Assembly (NCBI GenBank): GCA_045650665.1
Contig: JAZRRL010000019.1
Coordinates: 8,454-72,453 of the forward strand
Direction of reading: 5' to 3'
DNA length: 64,000 nucleotides
Source of the DNA: Faecousia sp.
GTDB taxonomy: Bacteria; Bacillota; Clostridia; Oscillospirales; Oscillospiraceae
Made by a program: the position numbers and the translations under genes. Positions 58,427 to 64,000 of the stretch are shown in pieces. Numbering within the stretch: the first letter of the stretch is position 1; the number at the start of each line of letters is the position of its first letter. The notes beneath the pieces were generated by a model. That model was given only the letters and a program-made list of their open reading frames with translations. It did not search any database and had not been told where the DNA came from.

Positions 58427-59431
58427 ATGAGAAGAAAACGCAGAAATTCCAATATGATTACCACCGTTGCCATTGTTATCTTTGCGGTGGTCGTATTTGC
58501 TATGGTGCCCGTGGTGGGTAACTGGATTTTGGATAAAATCGTCCCCTCCGAACCTGCTGTCAACAGCAGTGTTGCTTCCTCCGATTCTTCCACTGCCCCC
58601 ATCAGCACACCCCCTGCTTCCACCGGCGCACCGGATACAGAAGCGCCGATACTCGTAGGCGTAAAGAATCTGGAGGTTTATCTGGGTGGTACGATTTCTT
58701 ACAAGAACGGCGTTGCTGTTACCGACAATGCCGATCCCAAACCCAAGCTGGAAATCGACAATTCCAAGGTGGATCTGAACACCCCCGGCACCTATGAAGT
58801 TACCTACTGCGCAACCGATGCTTCCGGCAATAAGGCTGCCCCCATCACCGTCACCGTTACGGTGAAGGTAAAACCCGATAATTTCGTAGATCCTGAGGTA
58901 GTTTATGCCAAGGCAGATGCTATTCTTTCCCAGTTTATCCGTGACGACATGACCAACCAGGAAAAGGTAGAAGCTGTTTACGTCTGGACACGGCGCAGCG
59001 TCCACCTGACCTATGGCTCTGCCCCCAAGGGCTTTGACCACGAAAGCGCTGACTGGCTGCAGACCGCCTATCAATTCCTGAACAAGGAAGTTTCCAAGGG
59101 TGACTGTTTCTATTTCTTCGCTGTACAGAAATTGCTTCTGCAGCGGCTGAATATCCCCACCATTGACTGTGAAAAGATCTATGATGGCGACTCTCACCAC
59201 TACTGGCTGCTGGTCAGCATCGACGGTGGCAAGAGCTACTACCATTTCGACAATGTATGGTCCAACGCCCTGTGCTTGGTAACCGACGCAGAATTGGACG
59301 CCTTCTCTGCTGTGTTGGACAGCAATCCCTTCAATCGGGACAAGACCAAATACCCTGCTACACCCACTGAAAAGCTGCCCGCAAGCGAGCTTCCCTGGAA
59401 TGATTCCACTATCCTGGGCGCCAAGTACTGA
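58427..59431 (+). CDS. Membrane-anchored Ig-like (DUF5011-like) plus transglutaminase-like protein
   Basis: TM helix; DTEAPIL..TDNAD..VDLNTPGTYEVTY; GDC, HYW, HFD putative Cys-His-Asp triad. Confidence 0.78.
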   Translation: MRRKRRNSNMITTVAIVIFAVVVFAMVPVVGNWILDKIVPSEPAVNSSVASSDSSTAPISTPPASTGAPDTEAPILVGVKNLEVYLGGTISYKNGVAVTDNADPKPKLEIDNSKVDLNTPGTYEVTYCATDASGNKAAPITVTVTVKVKPDNFVDPEVVYAKADAILSQFIRDDMTNQEKVEAVYVWTRRSVHLTYGSAPKGFDHESADWLQTAYQFLNKEVSKGDCFYFFAVQKLLLQRLNIPTIDCEKIYDGDSHHYWLLVSIDGGKSYYHFDNVWSNALCLVTDAELDAFSAVLDSNPFNRDKTKYPATPTEKLPASELPWNDSTILGAKY

Positions 59432-59439
59432 GGTGTGCC

Positions 59440-60171
59440 ATGAGGGATAACAGAAAAATCTTGGGCGTGATTGGCGGCCTGGGCCCCATCGCAACTGCCC
59501 ATTTCATGGAACTGGTCATCAATATGACCGATGTGGATACCGATCAGGCACACCTGCCCATGATCGTGTACAACATGCCCTTTATTCCCGATCGCACCGC
59601 CTATATTCTGGACAATACCAAAGAAAATCCCCTGCCGAAAATGTTGGAGATTGGAAAGACCCTGCAGGAACAAGGTGTGGATTGCATTGCGATTCCGTGT
59701 GTCACTGCTCATTATTTTATGGATGCGCTGGAAGCACAGATCAATGTTCCGCTGATCAACGGTGTCCGGGAAACGGTTGCACATTTGAAGGAAAACGGTG
59801 TACAGAAGGTGGGTATTATGGCTACCGATGGCACCATTCGCTCTGGAATTTTCCACAAAGAACTGGAAAAGCAGGGCCTGCAGCCCATTGCCCCGCTGGC
59901 AGCTGCGCAAGCAGATGTCATGCATCTGATTTTTAACAATGTAAAGGCCGGCAAAGCTGCCGACATGGATCGTTTTGCTGCAGCCGCCGAGGATCTGCGC
60001 AAGCAGGGCGCTCAGGCCATTATTTTAGGCTGCACCGAGCTGTCCCTGATCAAGCGGGATCATAAAATTGGTGCCGGATTTGTGGATGCCATGGAAGTGC
60101 TGGCACGACAAAGTGTTCTTGCCTGCAACAAGCCTTTGAAAAAGGAATACGACTGTTTGATTACTGGCTAA
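59440..60171 (+). CDS. Aspartate/glutamate racemase family protein
   Basis: GVIGGLGP.AT, IPCVTAH, LGCTELS two-cysteine motifs. Confidence 0.92.
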   Translation: MRDNRKILGVIGGLGPIATAHFMELVINMTDVDTDQAHLPMIVYNMPFIPDRTAYILDNTKENPLPKMLEIGKTLQEQGVDCIAIPCVTAHYFMDALEAQINVPLINGVRETVAHLKENGVQKVGIMATDGTIRSGIFHKELEKQGLQPIAPLAAAQADVMHLIFNNVKAGKAADMDRFAAAAEDLRKQGAQAIILGCTELSLIKRDHKIGAGFVDAMEVLARQSVLACNKPLKKEYDCLITG

Positions 60172-60192: not shown

Positions 60193-61704
60193 ATGCAGAC
60201 AAATATTTTGGAATATTTGGAAGGAACAGTGAAGCGCTGTCCGGATAAAGTTGCCTTTGCCAATGAGGAAATGGGTCTGACCTTCCGTGAGGTCTATGCG
60301 CAAGCCCGTTCCATCGGCACAAAACTGCATACAGAAGGTTTCTACCGTCAGCCCATTGTGGTGTTCATGCGCAAACATCCTACCACCTTGGCAGCATTTT
60401 TCGGTGCTATCTATGCCGGCTGTTACTATGTACCGCTGGATGATGAGATGCCCCGGCATCGTATTGAGCTGATCTTCCAGACGCTGGGTCCCGGCGCACT
60501 GATCTGCGATGAAACCACTGAAGCCATTGCCGGTGAGTTGAACTATCAGGGCAAGATCTTCCGCTATGAAGATTTGGCAAAGAGCGCTGCAGACGATGCG
60601 GTTCTTGCCGACATTCGGGAGAAGCAGCTGGATATCGACCCCATTTATATCGTGTTCACCTCCGGCTCTACCGGTGTGCCCAAGGGTGTGGTGGCTTGCC
60701 ATCGCAGTGTCATCGACTATGTGGAGCATCTGTGTGATGTGCTGAAATTTGACGAAAATTCTGTTTTCGGCAATCAGACACCGCTGTATTTTGACGCTTA
60801 CCTGAAAGAGGTTATCCCCACGCTGAAATATGGCGCAAAGACGGTGCTGATTCCCAAGCAGCTGTTCATGTTCCCCATCAAGCTGGTGGAATTTTTGAAC
60901 GAGCATAATATCAATACCCTCTGCTGGGTTGTGTCTGCGCTGACCATGATTTCCTCTTTCCGTACATTTGAAACGGTAAAGCCGGAGCATCTGCGCACCA
61001 TTGCCTTTGCCAGCGAAGTATTCCCCATCAAGCAATTTAAACTGTGGCGTGCGGCGCTGCCCAACGCCCGGTTCATCAACCTCTATGGACCTACAGAAAC
61101 CACCGGCATCTGCTGTTATTATGAGGTAGATCGGGAATTTTCCGAGGAGGAAACCCTGCCCGTGGGTCGTCCTTTCAAGAATACCCAGATCATTCTGTTG
61201 GATGAAAACAACAAAGTTCCTCCCGTGGGTCAACAGGGCGAGATCTGTGTCCGTGGCACCCGTCTGACCTTGGGTTACTACTGCAATCCTGAGAAAACAA
61301 GCGAAGCCTTTGTCCAGAACCCTCTGAACGATCTGTATCCGGAGCTGATTTATCGTACCGGTGATCTGGGTCGCTGGAATGAACGTGGCGAACTGGAATT
61401 TGCAGGCCGGAAGGATTATCAGATCAAGCACATGGGTCACCGCATCGAGCTGGGTGAAATTGAGGTCATCGTGAATATGCATCCTCAGGTTCGCTCTGCC
61501 TGCTGTATTTTTGACAACGAAAAGAAGAAGATCGTTCTGTTCTACACCGGCGACATCACTCTGGCAGAACTGACATCTTATATCAAAGGCAAGCTTCCCC
61601 GCTACATGATCCCCAACGTGACCAAACAGCTGGAGGAACTGCCCTACACCCCTAACGGAAAGATTGACCGCAACGGACTTAAAAATCTGTATGCCGGTAA
61701 ATAA
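60193..61704 (+). CDS. Stand-alone amino acid adenylation enzyme (DltA-like)
   Basis: FTSGSTGVPKG, NLYGPTET, YRTGD, GRKDYQIK.MGHRIELGEIE, NGKIDR. Confidence 0.93.
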   Translation: MQTNILEYLEGTVKRCPDKVAFANEEMGLTFREVYAQARSIGTKLHTEGFYRQPIVVFMRKHPTTLAAFFGAIYAGCYYVPLDDEMPRHRIELIFQTLGPGALICDETTEAIAGELNYQGKIFRYEDLAKSAADDAVLADIREKQLDIDPIYIVFTSGSTGVPKGVVACHRSVIDYVEHLCDVLKFDENSVFGNQTPLYFDAYLKEVIPTLKYGAKTVLIPKQLFMFPIKLVEFLNEHNINTLCWVVSALTMISSFRTFETVKPEHLRTIAFASEVFPIKQFKLWRAALPNARFINLYGPTETTGICCYYEVDREFSEEETLPVGRPFKNTQIILLDENNKVPPVGQQGEICVRGTRLTLGYYCNPEKTSEAFVQNPLNDLYPELIYRTGDLGRWNERGELEFAGRKDYQIKHMGHRIELGEIEVIVNMHPQVRSACCIFDNEKKKIVLFYTGDITLAELTSYIKGKLPRYMIPNVTKQLEELPYTPNGKIDRNGLKNLYAGK

Positions 61705-61716
61705 AGGAGAAAAAAC

Positions 61717-61944
61717 ATGGAAGCATTACTGAACATTCTGAACGAACTGCACCCTGAGGTGGATTTTGAAACCGCCACCGGTCTTATTGATGATAAGGTG
61801 CTGGATTCTTTTGATATTGTCACCATCGTGGCTGAGATCGACGCTGAGTACGATGTGCAGATTCCCGCTGTGGAGCTGACTCCCGAAAACTTTAACTCCG
61901 CGCAGGCATTGTATGCTCTGGTGGAAAGATTGATGGAAGAATAA
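61717..61944 (+). CDS. Acyl/aminoacyl carrier protein (DltC-like)
   Basis: 75 aa, acidic; LDSF phosphopantetheine site; LTPENFNS. Confidence 0.92.
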   Translation: MEALLNILNELHPEVDFETATGLIDDKVLDSFDIVTIVAEIDAEYDVQIPAVELTPENFNSAQALYALVERLMEE

Positions 61945-61945
61945 T

Positions 61946-63511
61946 ATGCAATTTACGTCCGTAAGTTTTCTGCTGTTTGCGGCGGTTGTCCTGCTGGGCA
62001 ACTATCTGCTGCCCAAAAAGGTGCGGTGGGTCTGGTTGCTGTGTGGCAGTATGTTCTTCTATGCTCTGGCAGGTGTGCAGTATTTTGCATTTATTTTGCT
62101 AACTGCTGCTTCTACCTACCTTGCGGGCATTGTTATGGGCAAAAATCTGGCCGCGCAGGATGCATTTCTTGCCGAAAACAAGCAGATCCTCACCCGGGAG
62201 GAGAAAAAGGAATATAAGGCAAAAGTCAAGGGCAAGAACCGCATCATTATGCTCATTTGCCTGGTGATCAACTTTGCCGTGCTGGCTCTGTGCAAATTTT
62301 TACTGGCAGAGCCCTTTGCATCCATGGCAAAAAACACCGGCTTGTCCTTTTTGACCTTGGGTCTGCCCTTGGGTATTTCTTTCTACATGTTCCAGAGCAT
62401 GGGCTATGTGATCGACATTTACCGTGGCACTGACAAGGCAGAAAAGAATCCCCTGAAGCTTTTGCTGTTTGTGTCCTTCTTCCCCCAGCTGATTCAGGGT
62501 CCTATCAGCCGTCACGCTGATCTGGCGCCCCAGCTGACTGAAGGCAAAGCCTTCAACGGTAAGGAATTTTCCTTTGGCCTGCAGCGCATGCTGTGGGGTT
62601 ATTTTAAGAAGATGGTCATTGCTGACCGGATTGCTGCAGCGGTGATTGCCCTGCGTGGTCCGGAATTTACCGGTGTTGGTTTTTTCCTGCTGACAGTTTT
62701 TTATGCAGTGCGGATCTATGCCGACTTTACCGGCGGTATCGACATGACCATCGGTCTTTCCCAATCTCTGGGTATCAAGCTGGAGGAGAACTTTGTAAGA
62801 CCTTTCTTCTCCAAGAATATTGCTGAATATTGGCGCCGCTGGCACATTAGCCTGAGCGTGTGGATGAAAAGCTACATCTTCTATCCCCTCTCCGTCAGTC
62901 AGCCCATTCTGAGTCTGAGCAAAAAGGCTCGCACCAAACTGGGCAACTTTGGCAAGCGTTTGCCCGTGTATGTGGCATCCATTGCAACTTGGTGTGTCAC
63001 CGGTATCTGGCACGGCATCACCCCCAATTTTATTTTGTGGGGCATGATGAACTGCTTTGTGATCGTGGTGTCTGAGGAACTGAATCCCCTCTACGAAAAA
63101 TTCCATAACCGCTTTGGCTGGAAAGAGAAAAAGTTGTACGGTGGCTTTGAAATGCTGCGGATGTTTGTTCTGATGAACCTGATCCGCATTGTGGACTTGT
63201 TCCCCGATGTGGGGGATTATTTCCGCCGCATGGGCTCTTTGGTGACCACCTTCAATTTCCATATTCTTTGGGACGGCACTATGATGAAGCTGGGTCTGAC
63301 CAGCCTGGATTACGGCATTTTGCTAGGCGGCATTGTTCTGATGTTTGCTGTGAGCCTATTCCAGGAAAAGAAGGGCAGCGTCCGGGAAGCACTGTGGGAC
63401 AAGCCTCTGCTTCGCTACATCCTTGTATTTACGCTTTTGGTAATCGTACTGCTTATGGGCAGCTACGGCATTGGCTATAATGCAAGCAGCTTTATCTACA
63501 ACCAATTCTAG
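61946..63511 (+). CDS. MBOAT family O-acyltransferase (DltB/AlgI-like)
   Basis: LPLGISFYMFQ, FFPQLIQGPI, GYFKK.VIAD, YADFTG, ENF..PF, WRRWHISL, GIWHG. Confidence 0.94.
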   Translation: MQFTSVSFLLFAAVVLLGNYLLPKKVRWVWLLCGSMFFYALAGVQYFAFILLTAASTYLAGIVMGKNLAAQDAFLAENKQILTREEKKEYKAKVKGKNRIIMLICLVINFAVLALCKFLLAEPFASMAKNTGLSFLTLGLPLGISFYMFQSMGYVIDIYRGTDKAEKNPLKLLLFVSFFPQLIQGPISRHADLAPQLTEGKAFNGKEFSFGLQRMLWGYFKKMVIADRIAAAVIALRGPEFTGVGFFLLTVFYAVRIYADFTGGIDMTIGLSQSLGIKLEENFVRPFFSKNIAEYWRRWHISLSVWMKSYIFYPLSVSQPILSLSKKARTKLGNFGKRLPVYVASIATWCVTGIWHGITPNFILWGMMNCFVIVVSEELNPLYEKFHNRFGWKEKKLYGGFEMLRMFVLMNLIRIVDLFPDVGDYFRRMGSLVTTFNFHILWDGTMMKLGLTSLDYGILLGGIVLMFAVSLFQEKKGSVREALWDKPLLRYILVFTLLVIVLLMGSYGIGYNASSFIYNQF

Positions 63512-63519
63512 GAGAGAAT

Positions 63520-64000
63520 ATGAAGAAGAAAATCGCTTTATTGTCCTCTGTTCTGGTGATCGCAGGCATTCTTTTGTACTGTCTGCAGGCGCTTTTGATG
63601 CCCAAGTATATGGTGGGCAAGCACAAAGAAGGCGCACTCATTGCCGAGTATTACAAAAATGCCGGTAATAACGATGTCATCTTCATCGGTGACTGTGAGG
63701 TTTACGAAAACTTTTCCCCCATTACCATGTGGGAAAATTACGGCATCACCTCTTACATCCGGGGCAGCGCACAGCAGCTGATCTGGCAGAGCTACTACCT
63801 GATGGAAGAAACCTTCCGGTATGAAACGCCCAAGGTGATGGTGTTCAACGTACTTTCCATGAAGTACGATACTCCCGAAAGTCCCAAGGAGAAAAATCAG
63901 CGGGAAGCCTACAACCGCATGACATTGGACGGCATGCGTTGGTCCAAGTCCAAATGGAATTCCATTTTGGCCTCCATGTCCAAGGAGGAACGGGAAAATA
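63520..64000 (+). CDS. SGNH/DltD-AlgJ-like protein, 3' end outside window
   Basis: Own translation: N-terminal TM then DVIFIGDCEVYENFSP..MWENYGITSY.RGS..Q; open to window end. Confidence 0.75.
   Translation, partial: MKKKIALLSSVLVIAGILLYCLQALLMPKYMVGKHKEGALIAEYYKNAGNNDVIFIGDCEVYENFSPITMWENYGITSYIRGSAQQLIWQSYYLMEETFRYETPKVMVFNVLSMKYDTPESPKEKNQREAYNRMTLDGMRWSKSKWNSILASMSKEEREN

Follow-up and report, generated by a model that had tools for sequence, protein, structure and literature searches.

A cysteine at the nucleophile position of a putative membrane-anchored SGNH-fold acyltransferase in a Dlt-like gene cassette of Clostridia

We analyzed a stretch of 64,000 nucleotides from Faecousia sp. 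(the window), which ends within a cassette of genes that are all on the forward strand. The first gene of the cassette (58427..59431) encodes a membrane-anchored protein with an Ig-like part and a transglutaminase core (hereafter, the TGase-like protein), as indicated by a match to Transglut_core in Pfam and by an invariant Cys227, His258, and Asp275. Matches to family models identify the next three products as an amino acid racemase of the Asp/Glu family (59440..60171), a DltA-like adenylation enzyme whose pocket starts with D-A-Y-L-K (60193..61704), and a DltC-like carrier protein of 75 amino acids with an LDSFD phosphopantetheine site (61717..61944). These are followed by an MBOAT protein of 521 amino acids (61946..63511), which matches the MBOAT family in Pfam (and TIGR04091, below its cutoff), contains the motif WHG, and has a C-terminal tail that ends with F-I-Y-N-Q-F. 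Only 9 bp separate the MBOAT gene from the gene that is the subject of this report, which encodes a putative SGNH-fold acyltransferase and begins at 63520.

The end of the window cuts this gene: positions 63520..64000 (forward strand) hold the first 160 codons (the 5' 480 nt) of a protein of 356 amino acids. The remainder (L001:2102-2691) was recovered from the window's own assembly, so that the full gene corresponds to L001:1621-2691 (G000:C19). We call its product P0001. A lipoprotein gene follows it just downstream of the window's end (L001:2701-3234). The translation of P0001 begins with MKKK and contains DVIFIGDCEVYE. Its N-terminus has three lysines and a hydrophobic helix at about residues 5–26 (the putative transmembrane anchor), and a soluble domain follows. 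The predicted topology is N-in and C-out, as in enzymes of the DltD/PatB type. The block I region reads DVIFIGDCE, and codon 59, which lies at 63694..63696 on the forward strand, is TGT (in the context ggt gac tgt gag), which gives G57-D58-C59. A preliminary description of the window had reported a cysteine from TGT at these positions of block I, and both the DNA sequence and the translation confirm it.

By itself, P0001 had no significant matches in PDB, Pfam, or NCBIfam, and it could be placed only with a family profile and a fold search. (The match to GDSL_2 from Pfam covers residues 232–308, in the C-terminal half, and scores 18.8 bits, which is below the cutoff of 32.9 bits.) An alignment of 88 homologs (alignment A1) was used both for the family profile and for an AlphaFold2 model of P0001, which has a pLDDT of 95.5 and a pTM of 0.93. 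All of the significant Foldseek matches for this model are SGNH proteins: GDSL acylhydrolases, DltD, PatB, PAF-acetylhydrolase, and TesA. Superpositions onto TesA and other SGNH structures with VIA-align gave Z scores of 12–13, with an rmsd of 2.8–3.0 Å over 160–165 residues. According to the model, P0001 is a membrane-anchored SGNH-fold protein, and the SGNH assignment of the preliminary description was well founded.

Two comparisons put Cys59 at the position of the catalytic serine, as had been proposed from the window alone. First, in the VIA-align superposition onto TesA from E. coli (Z = 12.8, rmsd 2.8 Å, 164 of 179 residues, with residues 50..323 of the model on residues 1..179 of TesA), an ungapped first strand puts Cys59 on residue 10 (I-F-I-G-D-C59 on L-I-L-G-D-S10). 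We infer from the superposition that Cys59 is equivalent to Ser10 of TesA, which is the nucleophile of that enzyme. Second, when the family profile is aligned to the GDSL-like chains 9hi6 and 4iyj from PDB, F-l-G-d-S lines up with F-M-G-N-S of block I, and D-x-G-x-H-x-N-x-x-G lines up with R-D-G-V-H-P-N-L-E-G of block V. The glycine and the backbone context of block I are conserved, and the column for the serine holds a cysteine in P0001. At the other end of the protein, His301 aligns with the block V histidine and precedes the usual x-N-x-x-G. A C-terminal DxxH had been expected beyond the window's end. His301 is indeed there, but the conserved Asp297 is at position -4 (D297-T-G-L-H301), which makes the motif D-x3-H instead of the canonical DxxH with the aspartate at -3. 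(The column of Gly299 is a gap in 26 of 115 distant homologs, which would give D-x-x-H in those proteins.)

Other parts of the family are less typical of SGNH proteins. Blocks II (Gly) and III (GxND) are not recognizable in the family's sequence: the consensus is R-G-S after strand 2 and K-V-V-V-x-x-V after strand 3, with no GxND there. Also, P0001 has a helical insertion of about 115 residues (111–225), which carries the family-specific and nearly invariant motif F-P-x-L-R-Y-H176-x-R178-W. This motif and the following D186 (residues 170–186; L001:2128-2178) are nearly invariant in both Ser-type and Cys-type members of the family and have no counterpart among the SGNH blocks. The motif is a candidate for the site that binds the acceptor or the shuttle peptide.

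The nearest solved structures are esterases or thioesterases (TesA, sialate O-acetylesterase, and PAF-AH). P0001 might therefore be a thiol esterase, with a hydrolytic or editing role: it would remove or recycle the aminoacyl group carried by the MBOAT's tail or by the polymer, and the TGase-like protein or another enzyme would perform the transfer. The atypical blocks II and III fit this idea, as does the occurrence of accessory extracytoplasmic esterases such as FmtA and DltE in Dlt systems. However, the position of the gene, the membrane anchor, and the 9-bp coupling to the MBOAT gene are those of transferases of the DltD/PatB type. Furthermore, in the Ser-type sisters, the SGNH protein that accompanies the MBOAT is the sole extracytoplasmic enzyme, which implies that the ancestral role of the family must have been productive transfer. 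Overall, we consider a hydrolase to be very unlikely.

To see how widespread the cysteine is, we considered the family as a whole, which has over 7,000 clusters at a threshold of 90% identity and about 6,100 when the threshold is 50%. Column 59 is cysteine in all 120 clusters of close homologs. Among 115 distant representatives (clustered at 50% identity), the column is serine in 85, cysteine in 29, and a gap in one, with nothing else. In a sample of 399 genomes from across the class, 86 genomes have a homolog, and we fetched 96 loci. In a tree of 211 sequences, the distribution of serine and cysteine requires two changes: one is for a clade of 67 Cys-type rows (the main Cys clade), which has no reversals, and the other is for a small second clade. 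A 48-row tree from IQ-TREE, for which the nucleophile column was masked, recovered the main Cys clade again (support of 66). Across 16 sampled members of this clade, there are about 9.4 substitutions per site, and column 59 does not change. G-D-C is present, with Asp297 and His301 intact, in all 42 of the main clade's proteins from the genomes. Thus, the GDC that drew attention to this protein is conserved among its homologs and is not sporadic.

The codons also suggest that the cysteine has been maintained by selection. Within the Cys clade, 24 of the codons are TGT and 22 are TGC, so synonymous changes occurred repeatedly while the amino acid stayed constant. The Ser-type sisters use TCN codons (mostly TCC), which are one step from TGY. 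This implies that the switch was a single C-to-G step and that the reversal was equally accessible, yet it was never fixed. Judging from the alignments and codons, Cys59 is real, it defines a clade, and it is under purifying selection. At seven other positions in the SGNH protein (Y44, I80, E102, P119, Y131, L219, and W262), the Cys clade has a residue that reaches at least 90% fixation and is seldom seen outside it. None of the positions that switch with Cys59 is a second clade-specific cysteine. We rejected a structural disulfide for Cys59 because there is no such second cysteine; C239 is conserved across the family, including in the Ser-type proteins.

A conserved cysteine could also be a silent swap. 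In that case, Cys59 would be the nucleophile but would do the same job as the serine of the sisters (O-acyl transfer to a hydroxyl), and it would be unrelated to the partner proteins and to the substrate. A single TCY-to-TGY mutation would have been fixed once and then kept because the active site adapted to it. The one-step distance to the sisters' TCN codons is as this scenario expects, and the serine/cysteine trait changed at most two or three times in the whole family. Furthermore, in a tree of 88 rows, the single GDS protein P0165, which is the nearest Ser-type relative, floats inside or beside the Cys clade and cannot be separated from the Cys-type rows, which hints that the two residues are interchangeable. 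There is also a precedent, as TviD performs ordinary O-acetylation with a cysteine (PMC8760489). On the other hand, there was no reversal over about 9 substitutions per site even though one nucleotide would suffice, and the seven other positions switched along with the cysteine. The association of the cysteine with partner genes, which is described below, bears on this question in two ways: it is a single phylogenetic event, as a silent swap would allow, but the partner genes persist beside the Cys-type gene even where the genes for the MBOAT, the adenylation enzyme, and the carrier protein are not adjacent. We think that a silent swap is rather unlikely.

The small second Cys clade comprises P0178, P0196, P0212, P0224, and the proteins at L112:7989-9590, L113:7989-9590, and L114:7842-9104. 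In these proteins, block I reads L-G-S-C-N, the column of His301 is arginine, and the column of Asp297 is threonine or serine (...SGGARLN...). The cysteine and the arginine are invariant at 35–37% identity. Most members have an additional C-terminal domain, and the MBOAT gene is the only adjacent partner. In an AU test with 48 rows, the hypothesis that both Cys clades arose only once was just marginally rejected (p = 0.0445, with groups that were named after the tree was seen). We rejected this clade as an independent replicate of the association between the cysteine and the partner genes, as it has only the MBOAT and has lost both the histidine and the aspartate of the triad. From its sequence, it is probably either a pseudoenzyme or a user of different chemistry.

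As members without the triad exist, P0001 might also be a non-catalytic scaffold, which would dock the MBOAT's tail and the partner proteins, or a redox sensor with Cys59 as a regulatory thiol. This seems the least probable of the explanations that we considered. Asp297 and His301 are kept throughout the main clade, other residues that are invariant across the family are intact as well (G57, H176, R178, D186, G200, N303, G306, and K309), and Cys59 lacks a clade-specific partner cysteine.

In the main Cys clade, the order of the genes in the cassette is conserved: TGase-like protein, racemase (optional), adenylation enzyme, carrier protein, MBOAT, Cys-type SGNH, and lipoprotein. We counted neighbors within 8 kb for 42 loci from the main Cys clade and for 78 Ser-type loci. 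The TGase-like gene is present at 39 of the Cys-type loci and the lipoprotein gene at 40, as compared to none of the Ser-type loci for either gene. The other components occur at loci of both types: 34/42 versus 30/78 for the adenylation enzyme, 34/42 versus 33/78 for the carrier protein, and 37/42 versus 74/78 for the MBOAT. For instance, the Ser-type sisters from metagenome-assembled genomes of Lachnospiraceae (L098-L111) have the adenylation enzyme, carrier protein, MBOAT, and SGNH (with GSS) but none of the three additional genes. The preliminary description had suggested that the cysteine might be correlated with the racemase. The racemase is found only beside Cys-type genes (0/78 Ser-type loci), but at just 20 of the 42 Cys-type loci, so we rejected it as the primary correlate and as the explanation for the cysteine. 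The Cys-type SGNH gene is most tightly associated with the genes for the TGase-like protein and the lipoprotein.

Some Cys-type loci depart from the conserved order. Misses at L011, L019, and L024 are explained by the ends of contigs. L040 is a true exception: the full relay is present, with neither the TGase-like gene nor the lipoprotein gene. Seven loci have no local adenylation enzyme and carrier protein, and two of these consist of the TGase-like protein, MBOAT, SGNH, and lipoprotein. The other five (L037, L039, L041, L042, and L043) come from five genomes in a single genus, and they have no adjacent MBOAT gene either. At these five loci, the genes for the Cys-type SGNH protein and the lipoprotein lie amid arrays with up to six paralogs of the TGase-like protein and a second copy of the lipoprotein, while an MBOAT, an adenylation enzyme, and a carrier protein are all absent from the surrounding 8 kb. 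The sole MBOAT in each of these genomes is 35% identical, is encoded elsewhere, stands alone, and ends with FIYARI or FIYATI.

The change from serine to cysteine, the gain of the TGase-like protein, the gain of the lipoprotein, and an altered adenylation pocket can all be traced to the same branch. These changes amount to one evolutionary event and have no statistical weight as replicates, so the associations cannot tell which of the partners explains the cysteine.

We also examined the partner proteins for hints of what is being transferred. The fifth position of the adenylation pocket is lysine or arginine in all 34 of the adenylation enzymes from the Cys clade (D-A-x-L-K/R), while the sister lineage has D-A-S-L-I. 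We rejected the idea that the basic residue is unique to the Cys clade, because some Ser-type cassettes have D-V-S-V-K. These residues indicate that the pocket is not DltA-like and probably does not select alanine. As for the racemase, it scores above the NCBIfam equivalog cutoff for the cysteate racemase CuyB (212.6 versus 190 bits) and also above that of TIGR00035, a general model for amino acid racemases, so its substrate need not be aspartate or glutamate.

The three catalytic residues of the TGase-like protein (Cys227, His258, and Asp275) are invariant in 49 of 49 aligned rows, and 20 of the 20 members that we tested match Transglut_core (best E = 2.9e-11). In the lipoprotein, the single invariant residue besides the lipobox cysteine is Cys83, in E-x-x-S-C-A-x-x-G. 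Its folded domain (residues 50–177, with pLDDT of 91–98 for each 10 residues) resembles small extracytoplasmic domains of the YfeY, DUF4309, SCP-N-terminal, and BLIP-like kinds (Z scores of 9.5–11.5), and we read the modeled domain as a probable binding or adaptor module. In four genomes, it forms a C-terminal extension of the Cys-type SGNH protein as a gene fusion (L020, L023, L028, and L030; phmmer E values of 1e-12 to 1e-16).

The MBOAT tails beside the GDC genes of the main clade all read F-I-Y-x-x-F. FxYxxF is an experimentally defined acyl-shuttle motif whose tyrosine feeds the SGNH partner (PatB or DltD); it is fused to MBOATs of the PatA type and is carried by DltX in the Dlt system, and pathways with the fused motif lack a carrier protein (PMC12148441). 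By its sequence, FIYNQF fits this motif, and an MBOAT with this tail next to a putatively membrane-anchored SGNH protein is the layout of the MBOAT–SGNH acyl shuttles. The cassette combines the fused motif, which is typical of PatA/AlgI-type MBOATs that use acyl-CoA, with a loading module like DltA and DltC, and thirty of the Ser-type cassettes have the same hybrid layout.

As compared to the DltXABCD system, P0001 shares with DltD an N-terminal membrane anchor, an extracytoplasmic SGNH fold, a position as the last gene of an operon with an adenylation enzyme, a carrier protein, and an MBOAT, and the expected acceptance of an aminoacyl group from the tyrosine of FxYxxF (PMC12148441). The differences are that DltD uses a serine instead of a cysteine, that the shuttle motif is carried by the DltX microprotein instead of being fused to the MBOAT, and that our cassette has a pocket that is not DltA-like and has the TGase-like protein and the lipoprotein as additional partners. 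The label of DltD-like from the preliminary description did not hold at the level of the family: Foldseek matched the DltD structures (6pfx, 3bma, 7dxm, and 6o93) with TM-scores of only 0.3–0.4, P0001 did not match the DltD family PF04914 even at E ≤ 10, and it had no match in NCBIfam. We also searched the six-frame translation of the whole genome (G000, a 94%-complete assembly) with PF04914 and found no hits, although two control genomes (B. subtilis and L. lactis) gave positive results. By these searches, the organism may have no Dlt-like system other than this cassette.

PatA and PatB also have an MBOAT with a fused C-terminal FxYxxF and a separate SGNH transferase (the fold match to PatB has a Z score of 11.3). 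However, PatA uses acetyl-CoA, with no carrier protein, whereas this cassette joins the fused motif to its DltA/DltC-like module, and PatB uses a serine. The Ser-type members of the family, which are from Bacillota, are 30–45% identical and share the architecture, the cap motif FPxLRYHxRW, and an MBOAT with a FIYxxF tail; a subset of them also have the adenylation enzyme and the carrier protein. They differ in block I, which is G-S/D/N-S with the serine, and in never having the three additional genes. In the ESM Atlas, the family has no label besides the automatically assigned "SGNH/GDSL hydrolase family protein," again from Bacillota.

The only described SGNH-fold enzyme with a cysteine in block I that we found in a literature search is TviD, the O-acetyltransferase for the Vi antigen of Salmonella Typhi and Bordetella. 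TviD has Gly-Ser-Cys in block I, and its activity requires Cys18 and His253 but not the aspartate, as determined from a homology model and mutagenesis; it has a C-terminal TPR domain, no homologs outside of Vi-antigen systems, and no described MBOAT partner (PMC8760489). Its likeness to P0001 is limited to the block I cysteine in an SGNH fold, as P0001 has a transmembrane anchor and an MBOAT partner and has no TPR domain. In the literature that we searched, neither a Cys-type SGNH enzyme that is partnered with an MBOAT nor this cassette is described, and searches for this type of operon returned only papers on the canonical dlt system. Because of TviD (PMC8760489), a cysteine nucleophile in the SGNH fold is not unprecedented, and we read the proposed acyl transfer by an MBOAT–SGNH pair via a putative thioester as a new variant.

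The best explanation for these features of the sequence and the model is that P0001 is an outward-facing acyltransferase at the end of a Dlt-like cassette for aminoacylation of the envelope, and that it uses Cys59, His301, and probably Asp297. We think it likely that P0001 is a Cys-His(-Asp) SGNH transferase in which Cys59 acts as the nucleophile and accepts an aminoacyl group from the tyrosine of the MBOAT as a thioester. Our analysis shows the SGNH fold, where the cysteine lies and that it is fixed, the intact histidine and aspartate, and the association with the cassette and the partner genes; we infer that a thioester forms, which acyl group is transferred and to what acceptor, the roles of the partners, and the reason for the cysteine. 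The adenylation enzyme would load an amino acid onto the carrier protein (judging from the pocket, not D-alanine; where the racemase is present, the D-form). The MBOAT would then carry the amino acid across the membrane to the tyrosine of its own fused FIYNQF tail, and Cys59 would attack the aryl ester of the tyrosine to form an aminoacyl-thioester enzyme. Finally, the group would be passed to an acceptor in the envelope, together with the TGase-like protein (with its Cys-His-Asp) and the Cys-bearing lipoprotein. The window also encodes CODH/ACS, which suggests that the host is an anaerobe and makes an exposed catalytic thiol plausible.

As to why a cysteine would be favored, a thioester can pass isoenergetically to another thiol or can be aminolysed to an amide, but the alkyl ester of a serine cannot go uphill to a thiol. 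This would explain a change from serine to cysteine on the branch that gained a partner with Cys-His-Asp. A speculative extension of our proposal, which we consider doubtful, is a relay of thioesters: the acyl group would move from the MBOAT's tyrosine to Cys59, then by transthioesterification to Cys227 of the TGase-like protein, and then form an amide on an amine in the envelope, such as an amine of the peptidoglycan stem peptide. The lipoprotein, with its Cys83, could serve as an adaptor or an intermediate station. These observations fit a link between Cys59 and the partner thiol enzyme but do not prove it.

The cassette is unevenly distributed. The closest homologs of the window's Cys-type protein (E values of about 1e-130 to 1e-145) belong to other families of the class. 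Within the window's own order, the genomes have only distant homologs of the Ser type, and the one genome from the same family has none. This patchy distribution may reflect horizontal transfer of the cassette.

Pairs of MBOAT and SGNH proteins are a general bacterial route to the acylation of envelope polymers, including the D-alanylation of teichoic acids and the acetylation of peptidoglycan, alginate, and cellulose. To our knowledge, all of the characterized pairs use an acyl-serine enzyme and make esters. The lineage with the cysteine is large and spans many families of Clostridia, with relatives that are annotated as being from gut and rumen metagenomes. On the branch where it replaced the serine, it also recruited a thiol enzyme of the transglutaminase type and a Cys-bearing lipoprotein, and the cassette predicts thioester chemistry outside of the membrane. 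It also blurs the published dichotomy between systems with a carrier protein and DltX and systems with acyl-CoA and a fused motif, because here the carrier protein and the fused motif occur together. If the relay is correct, then the cassette would do for N-aminoacylation (amide formation) what the Dlt, Pat, and Alg systems do for O-acylation. More broadly, the cassette may mark a new decoration of the envelope in abundant gut anaerobes.
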